From NCBI GenBank assembly GCA_050304755.1, contig JBNLED010000252.1:2210-66209 (forward strand): DNA of 64,000 nucleotides, in the 5' to 3' direction. Under the pieces are notes generated by a model, which was given only the letters and a program-made list of their open reading frames with translations, ran no database searches and was not told the origin of the DNA. Shown here piece after piece: positions 2,173 through 27,654 of the stretch. This stretch comes from Polyangia bacterium (GTDB lineage Bacteria; Myxococcota_A; Polyangia; JAAYKL01). Position numbers and translations under genes: made by a program. Position 1 is the stretch's first letter; each line of letters begins with the position of its first letter.

Positions 2173-3639
2173 ATGACTAAGAAGGCTATTCACAGTGTTG
2201 TGTCTGTCCTGGTGGTTATAAATGTCTCTCTATTGGCGCCCATTTCAGAAGCCGAGTCCGGTGCTGAGTTGTATCGTACCGAAGCCCATCGCTACGGTAA
2301 ATTTGAAGCCAGGTTGCGATTCGCTCCAGGAAACGGCGTTGTCTCGACATACTTCCTGTGGAAGGTCGATTCAGAGTTGTCGGATGTCTATTGGAATGAG
2401 CTGGATATGGAGAAGATTACAGACAACTGTAACGGATACTGGGCCAATGCCATCTACGGGTTACCGGAATCCAACCACGGCTTCAACATCACTGCGCCCG
2501 ACAACCTATGCGATAACTTTCACGTCCATGCATATGAATGGACGCCGGACAGAGCCATCTGGCTACTGGACGGCAATCCGGTTCGAGAAGGTACCGGAGA
2601 GGAGATCGCCGCATTTGCCGACAACGCTCCAGACGGCATGCAATTTCGTTTCAACCTTTGGGTGGGAAATCAGGACTTTGGTGGTAATCTCGACCCGTCT
2701 ATCCTGCCGGTTCACCAGATTATCGACTGGGTTCAATTCTCGGAATACACACCGGGCGCGGGAGACAATGGGACGGATTTTACCTTTCTTTGGAAAGAGA
2801 ATTTCAATGGCTCCGAGTTGCCCTCGGGGTGGGCGACCGGAGATTGGGATTCAGCGTACGGACTCTCCAAATTCTCTCCCGACAATGTAAACCTCCAAGA
2901 AGGATGTGTGATTTTGTCTCTCACCGCAACGGGAAGTGAGGGGTATAATGACATCGACATAGATACGGATGGGGATACCGATACGGATACGGATGCGGAC
3001 ACCGACGCGGATACGGATGCGGACACCGACGCGGATACGGATACGGATGCGGACACTGACGCGGATACGGATGTGGACACCGACGCGGATACGGATGTGG
3101 ACACGGATGCGGACACAGATGCGGACGCGGACACAGATGCAGATGCGGATACGGACACGGACGCAGATGCGGACACGGACACGGACACGGACGCAGATAC
3201 TGATTCCGACACCGACGTTGATTCCGACTCTGATGTTGATTCCGACACTGATGCTGATTCCGACACTGATGCTGATTCCGACACTGATGCTGATTCCGAC
3301 ACTGACGTTGATTCCGATACTGACGCCGATTCCGATACTGACGCCGATTCCGACGCTGACGCGGATTCCGACGCTGACGCGGATTCCGACGCTGACGCGG
3401 ATTCCGATGCTGACGCGGATTCCGATGCTGACGCCGATTCCGACGCTGACGCCGATTCCGACGCTGACGCCGATTCTGATGCTGACGCCGATTCCGACGC
3501 TGACGCGGATTCAGATGACGGCACCGTGATTGATGGAGGGGTGGGGGCAGACGATGAAGGAGGATGCGGGTGTTCGGCGGTGGGAATCGATACCCGTAAT
3601 GGATCGGTCTTCAGAGAGCTGCTGAAATTGCTTTTCTGA
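2173..3639 (+). CDS. Secreted GH16 beta-glucanase-like protein with Asp-rich repeat stalk and MYXO-CTERM-like tail
   Basis: Signal peptide; YGKFEARLR and WNELDME (ExDxE) GH16 motifs; [11 protein letters not shown]; long DT/DA/DS repeat; C-terminal GGCGCS...LLKLLF; RBS-like GAAGGA upstream of ATG 2173. Confidence 0.85.
2960..3515 (+). repeat. Coding low-complexity tandem repeat encoding (D-T/A/S)n, with 6/18-bp periodicity
   Basis: Units such as GCCGATTCCGACGCTGAC and GCGGATACGGAT repeated in tandem. Confidence 0.9.
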
Positions 3640-20347: not shown

Positions 20348-20424
20348 CGCAGCCTCCCTTGCCAAAATCTCTATGTTGAAATAAACACTGTTCCCTAGTG
20401 CCGAATCATATAGGATCATACCCC

Positions 20425-21192
20425 ATGCAGGCAAACCGACGAGCTTTTCTCAGGAACACCGGCTTGGCCGCCTTGGGGCTGGCCCTCCCCGGGAGGCTCA
20501 TGGCGGTTGGGGCGGCTTCTCAGGTTCAGATCCTCCAGCTCGTCTACCCCGGGGGAAACTGGCGTCCCCGGGCGACGGCGCTCAGGCGGCTGCTTTGGGA
20601 GGTTCACAAACGAACGGCGGTGAACGCAGCGCTGGAGCCGCTGGATATCAAGCCCACCACCTGGGCGTTCGCCAAGAGCCCCCTCGCCTACATGAGCGGC
20701 GATCGGCCCTTCTCCGACTGGAGCAAGCAGTCCGTTCAGGCCCTCTCCCGATTTCTCCAGCTCGGGGGAATGCTCATCGTCGATCCCGCCCACACCCCCG
20801 ACGGAAACCCCGCGGGGTTCGAGGCCTCCGTAAAGAAGCTCCTGCTCGCCGCGCTGCCCGACGTCACCCCCAAGCCGCTCCCGAAGCGGCATGTGCTCTA
20901 TCGCTCTTTCTACCAGATCGAACGTCCCGTCGGGCGGATCACGGGACCGGACTTCCTGACGGGCTACAGCGTGGACGATCGGTGCCAGGTGGTGCTCACC
21001 CATCACGATCTCGGGGGCGCCTTCGCCAGAGACAACCTGGGCAACTGGGAGTACATCGTGGAGCCGGGGGGCGAGCGTCAGCGGGAGAAGGCGTTCCGGC
21101 TGGGGGTGAACCTGGTGCTCTACGCGCTCTGTCTGGACTACAAGAACGAGGAACCCCACCGGCGGTTCGGCCGGGAAATCAAAGAGGGCTGA
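20425..21192 (+). CDS. DUF4159 domain protein, Tat-exported
   Basis: NRRAFL twin-arginine signal; LGGMLIVD, HVLYRSFY, AFRLGVNLVLYALCLDYK. Confidence 0.85.
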   Translation: MQANRRAFLRNTGLAALGLALPGRLMAVGAASQVQILQLVYPGGNWRPRATALRRLLWEVHKRTAVNAALEPLDIKPTTWAFAKSPLAYMSGDRPFSDWSKQSVQALSRFLQLGGMLIVDPAHTPDGNPAGFEASVKKLLLAALPDVTPKPLPKRHVLYRSFYQIERPVGRITGPDFLTGYSVDDRCQVVLTHHDLGGAFARDNLGNWEYIVEPGGERQREKAFRLGVNLVLYALCLDYKNEEPHRRFGREIKEG

Positions 21193-21196
21193 GACG

Positions 21197-23488
21197 ATGG
21201 AAGACGCGGCCGCACAGGCGCCGAATACGCAGAGCGAGTGGCAGATTACGGCCCTGTCCAACCTCGACCTGGTGGTGCTGATCGCGTTGGCGTTGGCCGC
21301 GGTGGGGCTCGCCCTGTGGACCTGGCGCTCCTTGGATCCGGCCTTCTCGCGGGGACGTAAGGTGACCCTCCTGATGCTCCGGATCGCCGCCATTGTCGTC
21401 TGCTTCGGCATCCTCCTCCAGCCCACGTTGCACAAGCGAGAGCTCCGGGCCGAGCCCGCGCACCTGGCGATCCTCGTGGACACCTCCCCGTCGATGGCGC
21501 AGGGCGGGGACAACACGCGGCTCCTCCGCGCCAAGCGGATGCTCAAGACCGCGGGGCCGGCGATCGCGCGGCTCGAGAAGCGCTATCGGATCGACTGGTA
21601 CGGCTTCTCCGACGGCCTGGTCCCGGTGGCGTCGCCGGAGGCCCTCGGGGCGGGGGAGGGCAAGCACCGGAAGACCGATATCCGGGGGGCGCTCCAGGCG
21701 CTGATGGCAGGCGCCAAGAAGGTCCCCATCGACGGCGTGGTGCTCATCAGTGACGGGGCGGACACGGAGCTGGTCCCCCAGGCGGACGGCGAGTCGGACC
21801 TGACCTGGGCGGAGGCCTTCGGCGTCCCGATCAATACCATCGCAGTCGGGGACGCGCCTGACCGCGTCGAGCTCGCCATCACCCATGTGGAGGCGGCCCC
21901 CTTCGCGTTCACCCGGAGCGACACCCCCATCACGGTCCGCCTGAGAAGCGTCGGCCTGGAGGACCGCCGGGTGGAGGCCTTCCTCAAGCAGGACGGGACC
22001 GTGGTGCAGCGCCGGGAGGTGCAGCTGGTGGGGGGACGGGGGCAGCTCACCTTCACGGCCCTGCCCACGGCCCTCGGGCAGCAGGTGATGGAGGTCTCCG
22101 TCCCGGTGCCCGAGGGCGACGAGGTGCCCGAGAACAACCTGCAGCACCTCACCTTCGAGGTCATTCGGGACAAGTTCCGCATCCTCCACCTCGCCGGCCG
22201 GCCCTCGTGGGACCAGCGGTTCCTCCGGGACGCGCTCAAGTCATGGCCCCGGGTGGACCTCGTCTCCTTCTACGTGCTACGCACCGGCTACCAGTCGGCC
22301 ACCGAGGGATCCGCCGGAATGGCGCTCATCCCGTTTCCCACCGATGACCTCTTCAAGGATCACCTCGGGGAGTTCGACATCCTGATCTTCCATGAGTTCG
22401 AGCCCGCCGAGGTAGGGGTCGAGGCGTACGCGGGGAAGATCGCGGAGTTCGTCAGGGACGGCGGCGCCCTGGTCCTCATCGGCGGCGAGAAGGGACTCAA
22501 AGGTGGAACCATGGGGGGGCCCGCCCTGGAGGCGATCTTTCCCGTGGAGCTCCTGTCCGCGGGGACTCCGGCCTCCCGGATGAGCGACTCGGGACAGTTC
22601 CGGGCCAAGCTCACCGAGGACGGCGCGAACCACCCCATCACCCGGCTCTATCCCGATGACGAGAGGAACCGCCAGGTCTGGCGTTCCCTCACGCGGCTGG
22701 ACGGCCAGGGGCGCATCGCGGGGCTCGCGGAGGGGGCCCACTCCCTGTTGGAGAACCCCTTCCTCCTGGCGGACGACGGGCCGACACCGGTGGTCGCCGT
22801 CAAGGAGGTGGAGAAGGGGCGCACCCTCGCCATCACCACCGACTCCCTGTGGCGTTGGCGTTTCTCCGGACCGGTGACCGGCGGGCCGGCGGACCTGTAC
22901 ACCGACTTCTGGCGCAAGACCATCGCCTGGCTCACCCGCGCCCCGGACCTGAAGCGCCTCCGGGTCAAGGTCAGCCCCGCGCCGCTCACCATCGGCGACG
23001 CCGCTGATATCGATGTGGAGCTCCTCGATGAGTCCTACCGCCCCCTCGGCGGACAGCCCATCACCTCCCGTATCTCCTGGATCGGTGAGGACGGCGCGGA
23101 GGGCGGCGTCTCCTTTGATGCCAAGGTTGATCGGGACGGCCGCTACCGCCATGAGTGGCGGCCGACGGTGGAGGGGGCGCACTCGATCACCGTCACCGCC
23201 GATAACGGGCTGACCAATACCCAGCGGTTCCTGGTGGTGACCGATGACCGGGAGCGCCATCACCTCGACCTCCAGGAGTCCCTCCTCAGGGAGCTCGCCG
23301 AGACCACCGATGGCGATTTCAAACGAAACCTTTTCGATGATAAAGGTCTCGCCATGAGCAGCGCCAAGGGCCGCGAGGTGGTCTCCCAGCTCGCCCTCAC
23401 GCTGTGGGATCACCCCGCATTCATCGGCCTCTTCCTGCTGTTCGTCTTCGCCGAATGGCTCATGAGGCGCCGCATGGGCATGGATTGA
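21197..23488 (+). CDS. Membrane protein with VWA and glutamine-amidotransferase-like domains (BatA/DUF4159-associated)
   Basis: N-terminal TMs, VDTSPSM MIDAS motif, LISDG, ENN, FVRDGGALVLIGG, DSLWRW, C-terminal EWLMRRRMG. Confidence 0.85.
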   Translation: MEDAAAQAPNTQSEWQITALSNLDLVVLIALALAAVGLALWTWRSLDPAFSRGRKVTLLMLRIAAIVVCFGILLQPTLHKRELRAEPAHLAILVDTSPSMAQGGDNTRLLRAKRMLKTAGPAIARLEKRYRIDWYGFSDGLVPVASPEALGAGEGKHRKTDIRGALQALMAGAKKVPIDGVVLISDGADTELVPQADGESDLTWAEAFGVPINTIAVGDAPDRVELAITHVEAAPFAFTRSDTPITVRLRSVGLEDRRVEAFLKQDGTVVQRREVQLVGGRGQLTFTALPTALGQQVMEVSVPVPEGDEVPENNLQHLTFEVIRDKFRILHLAGRPSWDQRFLRDALKSWPRVDLVSFYVLRTGYQSATEGSAGMALIPFPTDDLFKDHLGEFDILIFHEFEPAEVGVEAYAGKIAEFVRDGGALVLIGGEKGLKGGTMGGPALEAIFPVELLSAGTPASRMSDSGQFRAKLTEDGANHPITRLYPDDERNRQVWRSLTRLDGQGRIAGLAEGAHSLLENPFLLADDGPTPVVAVKEVEKGRTLAITTDSLWRWRFSGPVTGGPADLYTDFWRKTIAWLTRAPDLKRLRVKVSPAPLTIGDAADIDVELLDESYRPLGGQPITSRISWIGEDGAEGGVSFDAKVDRDGRYRHEWRPTVEGAHSITVTADNGLTNTQRFLVVTDDRERHHLDLQESLLRELAETTDGDFKRNLFDDKGLAMSSAKGREVVSQLALTLWDHPAFIGLFLLFVFAEWLMRRRMGMD

Positions 23489-24091
23489 GAGGGCGTGATT
23501 CAACCGAATACTGTCGGGTAGGCGTCCCCCCTTTTTCAAAGGGTGAATTGGGATTCTTCAACCGACTCTGAACAATCGACAAGGCAACCCACAGCTACAT
23601 TTGGCGACTTTTTACTTTTGAAACGAAGCCTTTGGATTGGCCCTGCCCTCGAGAATTATCCCGTTCGACTCCACAGCTTCGAGTTCAATATCAATCACCC
23701 CCAATCCGGAGCTCGCCAAAGAATACAAAGAATCTTGGAGAGAGTTCCTCGGTCGATACATCACGGCATCCGCTGATTATCGCAACGGGAACTTCGAGAG
23801 AGCGTTTCCAGATGGGAGCTGCCGCCCGCCGCTGATGTCGATATACACCGCCTCCGAACCGTAGCTGCGCCAGTAAACATCAACCATCAACCCGCCCACC
23901 GTTATTCCGGACGCTCCGAGTCCCAATGTACCCGTCTGCCTCATTTACGACTCATTTCATCAGATAGACCGCAAACGACATTACTGACTCGAATCTGTCC
24001 TGGAAATCATGCTGGACAGTCTCTTTCTTCAGTGTATTTGATGGAAAACCGTTTGGCGTGATTGGAATTTTGCAAATGGTCCAGTTTGGCA

Positions 24092-24123
24092 TTGTAGAGA
24101 CTTTCAGGCTCTCTGAGACCCTT
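24092..24123. repeat. 32-bp direct repeat, copy 1
   Basis: TTGTAGAGACTTTCAGGCTCTCTGAGACCCTT, identical to 25736-25767. Confidence 0.9.
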
Positions 24124-24193
24124 ACCCCCCGAAGTCGGCCCTCAGGACTACGTGTACATCGACGCCAACGCCCTCGACTGGCCGGCCACAACC

Positions 24194-25543
24194 TCAGTCA
24201 AAGAACCATATGGGGCATCTGTCGGCGATCCAGCTCAACGCCGCGGGCTCGCTATCGATATTGATCAGACTCTTGATGATGATTTGCGGGAGCGTGTCGT
24301 TGTTCACGTCCTTGCCGAGGACCCCTCCCATCTGGTAGCCGATGCGCAGGGTGTTTAGGTGTCCATTGCCGTTCCACAACAGCGAGCGGTTGCGCAGCAC
24401 GAACCGCTCGAGGATCTTCAGGATTTTGATCGTTACAATGTCTCTGATTTTCTCTATGTTCGTGCGGTTTCCGTGGAGCATCTCGTTAAGGATCTCAATC
24501 TTGCGGGGATCAGATGACATTATGGTGTTCCCGCTCTGACTCAGTTGTTCCTCGCAGATCCCCGTCACCAGCGCCCTGAAAAATCTCAGACCATAGTCGA
24601 GCTTAGCTATCCTCGCCATTCCACCGGCGAACTCGGTCATGCTACAGGATAGCGCGCTGGCGATCTTGGGCTCGAGATAGGCGGTGTCGAATCCTTCTTG
24701 TATATCCGGATAGTGCTCAGTCGAGCTGATGAGCAGCCGTTTGATGCGCTGAATCGCCTGATCCGTCTTGGCGGCATATGTGATCAGGCCGGCCTTCAAG
24801 CGCTCGCGTTCGCCCTCGGCCGTTTTCAGGCTCTGCACGAGCACTCTCCAGTCATCGAGAATCCTGTCGATCGTCTCCTTCTTCAACTGATTTGGACCGT
24901 CGCTCCCGGGAGTGACGCTCCCCGCGATGTCGATAAGATTGCACAAGCAGACAAAGACGAAGTTCTTGAGGACGCCCTTTATCGTGCTCAGATTGCTTGA
25001 GTAGTACGGGACGTCGGCAAAAATCGGCAGCGATGCTTCACCCGTCTGTACGACACCGAACTTGTCGTGATGGAATACGACTGAACAGAGGGAGGCAAAG
25101 TATTCGCGTCCGATGATGCTCTCCAGGCGCCCTGCGTCCGTGCCGGAAAAATCGCGGATTAGGTAGAGGCCGATCTGCGGGTGGTTGTCGATTTCGATAT
25201 ACTTACCGATGTCGTGAAAAAGAGCGGCCAGCTTGAAGAACTCTCGGTCGTTCTCGGCCAAATAGGAATCGCAGGTGATTTCTTGTACGGCATCTATCAA
25301 GGCCAGTTTCGTGTCCTGCCCTCCGGATACAATTTCGCTTCTATCCCCGCTCAGGAGCTGATCGGCGAATTTCATGACATAGGCCAGATGGCGATGCAGG
25401 ACGGCGTTTTGAGAGTCTGTGTAGATGGCGGTCAGGTACCGCTTGAAGGGCATGTCTTTGATCCGGACCGTGGGCATCTGACCGGAAGGGGCGGAACACT
25501 CGTAAAAATCACTGGCATTAATAACAACGGCATTTCTTGGCAT
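24194..25543 (-). CDS. HD-domain phosphohydrolase-like protein of unknown function
   Basis: H...ALFHDIGK...HPQIG...HHD...D metal-binding pattern; RBS AAGGAGAG upstream of ATG 25543. Confidence 0.75.
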   Translation of the reverse strand: MPRNAVVINASDFYECSAPSGQMPTVRIKDMPFKRYLTAIYTDSQNAVLHRHLAYVMKFADQLLSGDRSEIVSGGQDTKLALIDAVQEITCDSYLAENDREFFKLAALFHDIGKYIEIDNHPQIGLYLIRDFSGTDAGRLESIIGREYFASLCSVVFHHDKFGVVQTGEASLPIFADVPYYSSNLSTIKGVLKNFVFVCLCNLIDIAGSVTPGSDGPNQLKKETIDRILDDWRVLVQSLKTAEGERERLKAGLITYAAKTDQAIQRIKRLLISSTEHYPDIQEGFDTAYLEPKIASALSCSMTEFAGGMARIAKLDYGLRFFRALVTGICEEQLSQSGNTIMSSDPRKIEILNEMLHGNRTNIEKIRDIVTIKILKILERFVLRNRSLLWNGNGHLNTLRIGYQMGGVLGKDVNNDTLPQIIIKSLINIDSEPAALSWIADRCPIWFFD

Positions 25544-25735
25544 GCAACTCTCCTTGATTGTGTTTGTCGCGGCGAAGCTTATCACAGCGAAGTTGTGTGG
25601 TGTAGCTCTTGTTTGCGCGTCGGAGAGTCGCTTCGACCACCTCATCGGGGCAAACGGGGTCATCGATAGAGCGGCCGTATCGGTCAAGGGGACGTAGTAG
25701 AGGGGGAGAGACAGGACGGACATGAAATGTGATTC

Positions 25736-25767
25736 TTGTAGAGACTTTCAGGCTCTCTGAGACCCTT
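25736..25767. repeat. 32-bp direct repeat, copy 2
   Basis: Identical to 24092-24123; both copies are followed by a C-run. Confidence 0.9.
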
Positions 25768-26039
25768 CCCCCCCCTGGAGATGCTCGTCTTTCGAGAGCA
25801 TCGCGGCAGCCGAATACAATGGGCTCCATGCAAGCGGAGCCCTCGCAGCCTGCGCAACGACCCGTGTTTCTCGTATCAGCCGAAATGTGGGAGAAAGGAA
25901 GCGTCCCCTCCCGCCCAAGCTCGAGGTCCACCTCGAGCGAAACAGCCCCTGGGGGTCTTCTTCGCCGAATGGCTCATGAGGCGCCGCATGAGCATGGATT
26001 GAGAGGGCGTGATTCCCCCGAAGCTTCAACCGCCCCCAA

Positions 26040-27494
26040 GTGGACGGCCCACCTGAATTCGGCTACATCAATTGGATGGACGCGGTCAGCGAAAGCATCG
26101 GGGCGGTGCTGGGGTGGTACAACGAGTATGTCGGCACCTACGCGCTGATGATCCTGCTGGTGCCGGTGGGCATCATGTTCACGGTGATGCTGAGGGGGGT
26201 GCAGCTCACCCGGCTCCGGCACGCGGTGGATATCGTCCGGGGCAGGTACGACAATCCGGACGATACGGGGGACATCAACCACTTCCAGGCCCTCTCGGCG
26301 GCCCTTTCGGCCACGGTGGGGACGGGCAACATCGCCGGGGTGGCGCTGGCCATCTACTTCGGCGGACCCGGCGCGGTGTTCTGGCTCTGGGTCACCGGGT
26401 TCTTCGGGATGGCCACGAAGTTCGCCGAGTGTACCCTGGCCCAACGGTATCGCGAGGTTCACGAGGACGGCTCGGTGTCGGGCGGTCCCATGTACTACAT
26501 CGAGCGGGGGTGCAAGAAGACCCTCGGTCGCGCCGCCAAGCCCCTGGCGGTCATCTGCGCGGGCTCGGGGATCCTCTGCTCCATCGGCACCGGGAACATG
26601 GCCCAGAGCAACTCCATGGCCGACGCCCTGCACCAGTTCACCCTCCCCGTCGCCGGCGGATTCCATATCCCCCACTGGGCCGCCGGGCTGGTCCTCGCCT
26701 TCCTTGTGTGGCTGGTGGTGGTGGGCGGCATCAAGCGCATCGGCACGGTGGCGGAGAAGATGGTGCCCCTGATGTCCGCGATTTACGTGACCGGCGCGGT
26801 GGTGGTCATCGCCCTCAACCTCGATGAGGTGCCCCACATGTTCGCCCTCATCTTCGAGGGTGCCTTCACCGGCACCGGCGCCACCGGCGGGTTCATGGGG
26901 GCGTCCTTCCTCCTCGCCATGCGCTACGGCATCGCCCGGGGGATCTTCAGCAACGAGGCCGGGCAGGGCTCGGCCCCCATCGCCCACGCTGCGGCCAAGA
27001 CCGAGTACCCGGTGCGGGAGGGGCTGGTGGCCCTCATGGAGCCCCTCATCGATACCCTCATCATTTGTACCCTCACCGCACTCGTCATCCTCTCCACCGG
27101 GGAGTGGACCTCGGGGGAGAAGGGCGCCGCCATGACCTACCGGGCGTTCCAATCCGGCCTCGATGTCCGAATCGGCGCCGTTGAGCTCGGCGGGGCGGTG
27201 GTCTCCGTCGGCCTCCTGCTCTTCGCCTTCACCACGGCCATCTCCTGGTCCTACTACGGCGAGCGCTGCATGGTCTACTTGTGGGGCCGCAGGTATATCC
27301 CCCACTACCGCTACGTCTACTGCTTCTTTGTCTTCGTCGGCGCCGTCTGGGCCAAGGATCTGGTGTGGCAGTTCGTGGACACCGCCATCACTCTGATGGC
27401 CGTCCCGAACCTCCTGGCCCTCATCCTCCTCGCCCCGGTGGTCAAGAAGATGACCGAGGAGTACTTTTCCATTGATCACCGGCCCACGCGGTAG
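26040..27494 (+). CDS. Alanine/glycine:cation symporter (AGCS family)
   Basis: FQALSAALSATVGTGNIAGVA, GGPGAVFW, GGPMYY, RGIFSNEAGQGSAPIAHA; exact start uncertain. Confidence 0.93.
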   Translation: MDGPPEFGYINWMDAVSESIGAVLGWYNEYVGTYALMILLVPVGIMFTVMLRGVQLTRLRHAVDIVRGRYDNPDDTGDINHFQALSAALSATVGTGNIAGVALAIYFGGPGAVFWLWVTGFFGMATKFAECTLAQRYREVHEDGSVSGGPMYYIERGCKKTLGRAAKPLAVICAGSGILCSIGTGNMAQSNSMADALHQFTLPVAGGFHIPHWAAGLVLAFLVWLVVVGGIKRIGTVAEKMVPLMSAIYVTGAVVVIALNLDEVPHMFALIFEGAFTGTGATGGFMGASFLLAMRYGIARGIFSNEAGQGSAPIAHAAAKTEYPVREGLVALMEPLIDTLIICTLTALVILSTGEWTSGEKGAAMTYRAFQSGLDVRIGAVELGGAVVSVGLLLFAFTTAISWSYYGERCMVYLWGRRYIPHYRYVYCFFVFVGAVWAKDLVWQFVDTAITLMAVPNLLALILLAPVVKKMTEEYFSIDHRPTR

Positions 27495-27654
27495 CGCTCT
27501 TTTTTATAAAGCGTTTGTGCGCCGGTTGCGGGCGCGAGATTTTGCATCACACTGATGTCGTTTCATTGCGAAGGGGGGCATCGGAACAGCCCCGAGACAA
27601 CGGATACGCTGATTTATGCCACCGGCAAGGGCCGCGTGGAGAGAGGAGACGACC

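Follow-up and report, generated by a model that had tools for sequence, protein, structure and literature searches.

TIRtrons consist of a TIRYT gene, which resembles the genes of REP-associated tyrosine transposases (RAYTs), and of long terminal inverted repeats (TIRs); the sections on TIRs in Di Nocera, De Gregorio and Rocco 2013 (PMC3733652) describe these as able to form moderately abundant families of singles, pairs and groups. Most TIRYTs are placed in Y1 subclass 2.1 according to the parts of PMC6006769 that concern them; its abstract gives IS200/IS605 elements subterminal hairpins and no TIRs. REPs are, in the extracts of two studies used here (PMC2817692, 10.1101/119735), self-complementary hairpins found in hundreds of copies beside a single-copy gene. 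Here we analyse a stretch of 64,000 nucleotides from a Polyangia bacterium (the window; G000:C252:2210-66209, from a 7.5-Mb assembly of 285 contigs), in which two identical 32-nt direct repeats enclose a gene for a phosphohydrolase of the HD superfamily, and compare it with these systems.

With a probability of roughly 0.78, the repeat (32 nt, or 39 nt at its full extent) is the right TIR of a TIRtron: copy 1 is the native right end of an element, copy 2 is a solo end in the same orientation, and the HD gene between them is a foreign passenger. The repeat is read as a right TIR because it is continuous with the 3' region of an insertion sequence (IS), because it is kin to other copies of the repeat, and because inverted TIRs stand around the transposase gene in relatives.

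The repeat pair and its family in the source genome

The 32-mer TTGTAGAGACTTTCAGGCTCTCTGAGACCCTT has two exact matches in the window, at 24092-24123 (copy 1) and 25736-25767 (copy 2), both on the + strand. Their start-to-start spacing is 1644, and they lie around the HD gene and its upstream region, as the preliminary description of this DNA had reported. Scanning the window for further sites with at most three mismatches gave none, and 0 of 100 shuffles gave a match. The repeat lengthens to 39 nt at 38/39 identity (24092-24130 vs 25736-25774, + strand), and both copies share a run of C past the TIR end. TIR copy 1 begins 228 nt past the stop of a transposase gene and is homologous to the right TIR of the element copies in a relative, G009; TIR copy 2 has no element interior attached. 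Concerning orientation, TTGTAG is the inner edge of the unit and its outer end reads ...CCCTTAC(C). One of the two readings offered earlier, two same-orientation ends of a transposon that terminates in TG, is thereby right in its first part, both copies being right ends of a Y1 element, and wrong in its second, since the TG lies at the inner edge.

The 32-mer had also been put forward as a sequence to trace across the genome. Exact copies are found only in the window, and a single extra site in the whole source assembly lies within three mismatches (C48:775-806); the two window copies are identical over 32/32 positions and every other copy differs by at least 3 of 32. What does recur is the family: a profile of the repeat recovers 14 copies at E ≤ 1.1e-6 in the source genome, solos included, which form two sub-families (GTAGAGACTTTCAGGsTCTyTGAGAmCCTTAC and GAGATTTACAGGACGTTTGAGATACGTACCTTAG). 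With a looser regular expression, the genome has 13 matches and the reversed control 2.

Folded as single-stranded DNA, the repeat is not above shuffles on either strand of either copy (z -0.21 to +0.21), and the imperfect AGAG/CTCT dyad described earlier thus adds no folding. The sole Rfam match in 22000-27500 is a sub-threshold miRNA, the search for tRNA genes in the window found none, and the promoter and terminator scan stays at chance level. A collection of genome contigs gave three matches to the 32-mer pattern, in unrelated phyla, which we take as chance; records of the source genome may be excluded from that collection. The scan of metagenome contigs, a collection that may likewise omit the source genome, gave one match, on a contig of 42-47% GC without transposase, HD gene or flank homology, and this is also taken as chance.

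A decayed element left of copy 1

We compared positions 23300-26200 with the whole source assembly by blastn. An alignment at 83% identity pairs 23698-24126 with C70:104-526 and reaches no further than the last bases of copy 1. Over its first part (23698-23870), which corresponds to the C-terminal 55 codons of a gene present in several copies, there are further matches of 75-78% to C250, C224, C41 and C10. Two fragments of this transposase gene are found on the + strand. Fragment a (23632..23703) covers the HUH motif region, ...LENYPVRLHSFEFNINHP (...LHSFEFNINHP), and matches C213:6199-6270 at 87.5% and C55:3533-3591 at 86%. Fragment b (23698..23864) covers the C-terminal ~55 aa, ...FPDGSCRPPLMSIYTASEP* (...FPDGSCRPPL...), lies within the 83% match to C70, and by tblastn is 80% identical to the C41 copy over aa 76-126. 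About 200 codons are deleted between the two fragments. The 227 nt that follow (23865..24091, +) are the non-coding 3' region of the element and lie inside the unbroken match to C70 that reaches 24126. Judged from these alignments, a decayed copy of a repeated element adjoins copy 1 on its left.

The stop-interrupted open reading frame (ORF) that the preliminary description had seen left of copy 1 is this transposase remnant. The second frame it had named there, a 5'-truncated ORF ending in SFAVYLMK*, is a minus-strand frame (23952-24191) across the non-coding 3' region of the element and the repeat, and is probably not a gene.

The repeat has the same position relative to the transposase gene at other loci. 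It lies 227-234 nt 3' of a transposase stop in four of its 14 copies (C41 at 227 nt, C224 at 228, C70 at 234, and window copy 1), and an inverted, left-end copy is found ~215 nt 5' of a transposase start in contig C164. The transposase gene itself has 21 matches in the source genome, none of them complete within a contig. Many copies lie at contig ends (C55, C41, C70, C250), which would be expected if the element is an IS at which the assembly breaks. There is also a difference in how far the copies of the repeat are homologous on their inner flanks (ungapped, at least 70% identity): 60+ nt for copy 1 and C70, 15 nt for C98 (~130 nt with gaps), 14 for C48, 4 for C266 and 0 for copy 2. These differing extents indicate that the solos are right-end fragments with a common outer boundary and a variable inner extent. 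A composite transposon, with two complete IS copies around the HD gene, was considered and ruled out, as the window holds one decayed copy and one 39-nt solo end.

Some further features of the family and of its neighbourhood in the source genome were observed. A conserved long hairpin, AGCGGCGACGA...(about 30 nt)...TCGTCGCCGCT, is found at C55:~3180-3230, C224:~67125-67175 and C164 (reverse strand). It belongs to the 5' untranslated region of the element, which separates the left TIR from the start of the transposase gene, and might be a regulatory or second recognition structure. The relative of the 32-mer at C48:775-806 is part of a mosaic (C48:1-1300, L003): on its inner side it adjoins a gene that has lost its 5' end and resembles a tyrosine recombinase gene (…HVLRHSFASH…RY), which is followed by an IS91-like-looking fragment, and a SecA-like fragment lies on its outer side; these gene names come from motif reading only. 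In the window, a short GTAG-containing hairpin-like stretch at 23497-23546 (...GGGTAGGCGTCCCCCCTTTTTCAAAGGG...) is 87-89% identical to C282:13810-13861. A repeat of ~200 bp at 944-1135 of the window (C252:3153-3344; type copy C55:2955-3154) recurs across the assembly in more than 40 matches, full or partial, which are 85-97% identical and often lie at contig ends; it is unrelated to the 32-mer.

The transposase

Full-length relatives of the transposase are ~338 aa long and start with MG(R/S)RIR. Pfam assigns no family to the protein, nor to any of the seven full-length proteins (7/7): there is no Y1_Tnp match and no helix-turn-helix (HTH) type domain in the C-terminal extension. The NCBIfam model REP_Tyr_transpos (REP-associated tyrosine transposase) matches at E 1.5e-6 with 28 bits vs a cut-off of 80, which is sub-threshold. 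A profile of the seven full-length relatives matches PDB 4er8 (E. coli TnpA-REP) at the catalytic Tyr motif (E 5.7e-4). In an alignment of 11 sequences Y149 and N84, the latter in the NH.H (HUH-type) motif, do not vary, and H87 of that motif is nearly invariant. The AlphaFold (AF2) model of the transposase (confidence scores pLDDT 84 and pTM 0.83) has 4er8_A as its top Foldseek match (E 3.7e-5, TM score 0.71 on the target), and the transposases of IS608, ISDra2 and IS200 take ranks 3-11. Based on the 4er8 profile match, the conserved Y149, N84 and H87, and the Foldseek matches to the predicted structure, the protein is assigned to the HUH-Y1 single-strand DNA transposases, RAYT type, with a long C-terminal extension.

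The gene is widespread among relatives and poorly annotated. It is found in 31 of the 61 genomes searched; of the 20 other genomes in the same bacterial family 19 have it, for the most part as multiple copies. The matches listed number at least 31 in G007 and at least 40 in G017. In public data, 94 proteins match the transposase at E ≤ 1e-10, and every name given (some of the names are shortened) is 'hypothetical protein' bar one. The exception is the most distant member (25% identity), which is named RayT and carries PF01797. No match was found among 72,556 plasmid records, and a related-locus search with the Y1 protein gave 44 pattern matches, none of which was confirmed.

Terminal inverted repeats in related genomes

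The other genomes compared are all at draft level. Genome-specific patterns were used to look for TIR pairs in ten genomes, the source genome and nine relatives; three of the relatives had no matches. In G009, six element copies share 1.31-1.38 kb. The left TIR is present in 5/6 copies, ...GC(C/A)GCTCA(G/A)(A/G)GACCCTGAA (...GC.GCTCA.rGACCCTGAA), and the right TIR in 6/6, ...TTCAGGGTCT(C/G/T)TGAGC... (TTCAGGGTCTnTGAGC...). They form an inverted pair, ~60-80 nt before the transposase start and ~240 nt after its stop. The core of these TIRs, TTCAGGnTCTnTGAG, is also the core of the window 32-mer (TTCAGGCTCTCTGAG); it has 31 matches in G009 (solos, arrays and pairs) vs 0 in the reversed control. 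In the relatives, then, the same core is found inverted around the transposase gene, and also as solos and in tandem arrays. G002 has inverted TIRs around the transposase gene with a related core, TTCAgTGTCTCTGGG (TTCAGTGTCTCTGGG... and TTCATTGTCTCTGGG...). Other TIRs flank the gene in G005 and G015, and weakly in G032; in G008, G004 and G011 TIRs are not recognisable.

The ends of the element are often multiplied in tandem. In G009, both ends of the element copies carry runs of two to seven outer-TIR units, each 11-14 nt long, with an outer boundary common to all, and the whole ~37-nt right TIR is present four times in L040 and twice in L041. Array sites of this genome are L040 1400-1520 and 2800-2990, L042, L044 and L045, as well as C49 and C221, where four-member arrays have spacings of 53-163 nt. 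The source genome has similar arrays: in C70 the units are 23 and 15 nt long and all end in ...CCTTACG, and in C41 and C39 they end in ...CCTTCGG. A flanking duplication of more than 11 nt was found around none of five element copies in relatives (0/5).

Two inverted TIR pairs are too close together for a full element, at G002:C244:6694-6911 (203 nt) and G018:C69:2957-3993 (1022 nt). These are likely non-autonomous derivatives, similar to miniature inverted-repeat transposable elements or to REPINs.

One candidate TIR of the window was rejected. A stretch directly beside copy 1 (24125-24160) looked like an inverted half-TIR, and its alignment to one G009 left end outscored all of 500 shuffles. 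Since a profile of 16 G009 TIRs does not recover it genome-wide and the source genome has no other TIR of the G009 type, we take the resemblance as probably due to chance. The HD segment is thus left without a recognisable inverted TIR pair of its own.

Comparison with described systems

The element has the defining features of a TIRtron, namely the Y1 enzyme, the TIRs and the TIR family. As in TIRtrons, a RAYT-like HUH-Y1 gene stands between long TIRs rather than REP hairpins; in the source genome the left TIR is found in C164 and right TIRs in C41, C224, C70 and the window. The TIR family also occurs as singles, pairs and groups (14 copies in the source genome, 31 core matches in G009 and the G002:C244 doublet). 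Unlike many TIRtron TIRs, those of the present family lack the GGGGWSAS motif in 6/6 copies. Subclass 2.1, as characterised in the parts of PMC6006769 used here, has an HTH-like C-terminal domain, whereas Pfam finds none in 7/7 proteins of this family. Both traits define subclass 2.1 and not the TIRtron concept. A further difference is that the gene is multi-copy and IS-like, and that its ends carry tandem arrays of fragments with a common outer boundary. The family is a so far unannotated kind of TIRtron, in which only the end arrays and three same-orientation pairs are unusual.

Compared with the REPtron of E. coli (TnpA-REP, RAYT, PDB 4ER8), which is the best structural and profile match to the transposase, the gene likewise lies between inverted units, and these also occur dispersed without the gene. 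A REP unit is a palindromic stem-loop of 20-40 nt, usually with a GTAG tag. The unit here has no hairpin, however, and is present in 14 copies, and the gene is multi-copy; the GTAG tag of REPs is found only in the sub-family of the window, at the inner edge of the unit. With IS200/IS605 elements (IS608, ISDra2) the element shares the predicted HUH-Y1 catalytic fold, and single-strand transposition is presumed from it. It differs from them in its TIRs, in the lack of a PF01797 (Y1_Tnp) match and in the length of the protein (338 aa vs about 130-150 aa).

Elements of the IS91, ISCR and Helitron type are HUH elements with two-tyrosine (Y2) Rep-like enzymes, and they lack TIRs. In their one-ended capture the terminating end is fixed and the 5' extent is variable, and neighbouring genes are picked up when the end is bypassed. 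By analogy only, capture of this kind would give two same-orientation ends around a cargo; nothing seen here indicates rolling-circle copying.

Same-orientation pairs and the assembly

We checked the window against Logan contigs (k=31) of four runs of one study. They back the order of the window: record 18 of run X3 spans copy 1 and both of its flanks (24026-24259) without differences, and records 6 and 3 of X1 cover both sides of copy 2. The duplicate might have arisen by mis-assembly of a metagenome bin at an IS end, or by chance. The assembly does consist of 285 contigs and its contigs are broken by this very IS family, but the independent k=31 contigs of the four runs agree with the window and the chance expectation is 0; of all the explanations weighed here, this one is the least credible. 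Two contigs show other joints. An X4 contig (depth 2.9) joins 25735 to 24092 and an X1 contig (depth 6.3) joins 25958 to 23445. Both sit in 32-nt exact repeats, one base longer than k, and their competing branches are thinly covered, so that circles, tandem copies and graph artefacts may each account for them. We count them neither for nor against any reading.

Two further same-orientation TIR pairs without a transposase between them were found among the genomes searched by pattern. In G009:C50:13298-14677 (L073 1799-3178), right TIRs 1365 nt apart stand around one gene for a 263-aa secreted, Cys-rich, STIG1-like protein; both copies share a private tail, GCACCTGA, and no transposase remnant is found near the pair. 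In G018:C197 the pair spans 939 nt; between the right TIR of an element and a second right TIR come, in this order, a truncated tyrosine integrase, tRNA-Asp and tRNA-Val. Since it encloses host tRNA genes, the latter pair speaks against a cassette.

Pairs of this sort could come from end-to-end capture by the HUH enzyme, in which the Y1 transposase, or replication primed at its nick, would act on two right ends of the same polarity. Copying might run one-ended and rolling-circle-like past the first right end and stop at the next, or strand exchange between identical ends might free and re-insert a circle made of the cargo and one TIR; the TIR-gene-TIR structure would then be a genuine recurrent mobile or capture unit of the family. 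Several observations are in line with it: each window copy is closer to the other than to any further copy, and the two have flank bases in common, the G009:C50 and G018:C197 pairs are two more cases without a transposase, and the end arrays with a common outer boundary (C70, C39, C41, four full units in L040, two in L041, and L042) fit copying that ends at a cleavage site. Against it, the G018 pair holds host tRNA genes and a truncated integrase instead of a cargo gene, the X4 joint, at depth below 3 in a 32-nt exact repeat of a k=31 assembly, can be a graph artefact, only one HD cassette is found in the source genome and none elsewhere, and the pairs are three in number and come without statistics. 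Neighbouring ends should in any case point the same way if single-strand elements target one replication strand, as the abstract of PMC6006769 has it. We regard capture as unlikely. The same holds for its wider form, which we would back at long odds: a TIRYT-like family that captures neighbouring genes between same-polarity right ends and repeatedly re-creates its right terminus, which would leave arrays and TIR-gene-TIR units, the units being releasable as single-stranded circles and re-inserted at another right end.

The HD gene

Between the repeats there is a single long ORF, on the minus strand, which counted from its first ATG spans 24194-25723 and 509 aa. The true start is likely the ATG at 25543, judging from the sequence around it, because AAGGAG lies 7 nt upstream and the resulting product of 449 aa equals the protein called in public data (P0001). 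The gene (24194..25543, -) has weak Pfam HD and NCBIfam HDIG matches; for Pfam HD the ORF reaches E 2.8e-4 and 21.6 bits vs a cut-off of 22. Its 192-nt upstream region (25544..25735, -) lies inside the repeat-bounded segment and has no promoter-like site above chance. In the AF2 model of the protein (pLDDT 85) the N-terminal half has the HD fold (VIA Z 13.7 to 3wfo_A, and 9-10.6 to domain III of Ppx/GppA, with 10.6 to GppA), and the C-terminal half (about residues 250-449) receives no fold assignment from the whole-protein model. Foldseek of the model against the PDB gives nothing at E ≤ 1e-3. PADLOC gives weak Cas3-HD matches (best E 4e-4), the only Atlas match is a 'putative HD domain protein', and the plasmid records hold no match.

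The HD family is rare, with 21 proteins at E ≤ 1e-3 among 5.8 billion and best identities of 46-48%. No homologue was found in 60 relatives, so that the source genome is alone among the 61. The homologues are scattered over Acidobacteriota, Chloroflexota, Planctomycetota, Verrucomicrobiota, Patescibacteria and other groups, and no conserved neighbours are found in 10 loci. Nine HD-homologue loci have neither a Y1 gene nor flanking direct repeats of at least 18 nt. The protein is a stand-alone phosphohydrolase of the HD superfamily, acquired horizontally. A distant HD paralogue is present in the source genome at C224:67818-69254 (23-25% identity, Pfam HD E 3.6e-4). There, in C224:66000-69300 (L018), an IS256-like transposase, a right-TIR-like motif (67084-67110), the 5' part of a Y1 element (67125-67565) and the paralogue lie side by side, which makes a second HD gene beside a truncated copy of the same IS.

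The preliminary description had preferred to see in the repeat a recombination site for cassette capture. In such an integron-like or other site-specific system, the 32-mer would be an att-type site at which a recombinase encoded elsewhere inserted a circular HD cassette and duplicated the site. One gene with its own upstream region between identical direct repeats, a short repeated site as in an integron cassette, does resemble this, as does the stand-alone and patchily distributed HD family. The repeat, however, is continuous with the IS 3' region and is one of a family of IS ends, the very possibility that the preliminary description had set against a cassette. Integron cassettes are usually promoterless, stand in arrays and have an attC site whose imperfect inverted repeats fold as single-stranded DNA, with IntI as the integrase. 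Other copies of the repeat flank no cassettes, the nine HD-homologue loci are without such repeats, and the locus is unlike an integron in having no attC-type hairpin, no integron integrase and no array, and in that the segment carries its own 192 nt of upstream DNA. A scan of 33 ORFs of the window, from 1 to 47 kb, gave no match to Phage_integrase and no other recombinase family. The site-specific reading is close to refuted. The HD gene between the repeats is foreign passenger DNA and not a cassette with its own recombination site.

The low-GC island and its host flanks

The decayed element, the HD gene and the solo TIR form a low-GC island of 2.45 kb (23509..25947; 52-56% GC vs 65-72% in the flanks, based on the composition profile). 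Between TIR copy 2 and the right edge of the island lies a spacer with several short hairpins (25775..25947), for which only a 23-nt match is found elsewhere in the genome. On the left, the island follows a host gene of 763 aa without a Pfam family (21197..23488, +), which lies downstream of a DUF4159 gene identified by Pfam (20398..21192). Orthologues of the 763-aa gene (30-51% identity) are present in 26 of 30 relatives, with the DUF4159 neighbour at 8 of 9 loci checked. On the right there is a gene for a sodium:alanine symporter (26040..27494, +; Pfam Na_Ala_symp E 7e-134), which is not adjacent to the 763-aa gene at nine loci of relatives (1.5-kb flanks). The empty site is not reconstructable, because the closest relative shares only 51% protein identity.

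The island is enclosed by a second direct repeat, D1. Its left copy (23434..23508, +; 75 nt, 91% identical to 25948-26022) is the 3' end of the 763-aa gene with its stop, so that the last ~56-75 nt of this gene are D1; the right copy (25948..26022, +) encodes only ...VFFAEWLMRRRMSMD*. The spacing is 2514, a core of 56 nt has 1 mismatch, and just these two copies exist in the source genome. D1 resembles the attL and attR of site-specific integration, yet no integrase is present. It is not a hallmark of this IS, given the 0/5 flanking duplications in relatives.

Origin of the structure

In the reading we prefer, that of a TIRtron right end, the intact element is ~1.4-1.6 kb long and runs from a left TIR through a gene for a RAYT/TIRYT-type transposase of ~338 aa and a non-coding stretch of ~230 nt to a right TIR. 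The transposase would bind and cut at the TIRs, and the outer boundary common to all end fragments would mark the cut. Copy 1 is then the native right terminus of an element whose left end and ~200 transposase codons are lost. Copy 2 may come from end duplication, a habit of the family, whose fragments have the same outer boundary and a variable inner extent; alternatively, it may have served as an alternative right end, so that the element and the HD gene would have moved or arrived as one low-GC block. That block would now be immobile, because its left end and its transposase are gone. The two copies are identical yet differ from all others by at least 3 of 32, and the block is uniformly low in GC, which suggests that the TIR-HD-TIR structure was formed before or during entry into the source genome.

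Several points weigh against this reading. TIRs are clear in just four of the eight genomes examined, and weak in a fifth. An intact copy with exactly this TIR is not assembled in the source genome, all other copies differing by at least 3 of 32, and the left TIR of the decayed copy was not found with the repeat profile of that genome. The identity of the two copies and their shared C-run point to a duplication event, which the reading names and does not explain. The same-orientation pairs of 939 and 1365 nt in two other genera suggest a non-random process. The D1 duplication of 56-75 nt is not accounted for by the element and is a separate event. Finally, the portions of PMC3733652 consulted report no experiment on the binding or cleavage of TIRs by any TIRYT.

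Implications

The label 'cassette' should be dropped for this locus. A multi-copy family of Y1 transposases, filed in public data as hypothetical proteins, can now be annotated together with its TIR core TTCAGGnTCTnTGAG. The habit of its ends, with tandem end fragments and same-orientation pairs around foreign DNA, would, if it is enzymatic, inform on how TIRYT and RAYT enzymes process ends. Were capture true, it would be an HUH-driven counterpart of cassette exchange, of which the HD gene of the window, the STIG1-like gene of G009 and the G018 pair would be three snapshots. For the organism, a rare stand-alone HD-hydrolase gene is marked as horizontally acquired cargo, and is a candidate for an accessory role, for example in defence.

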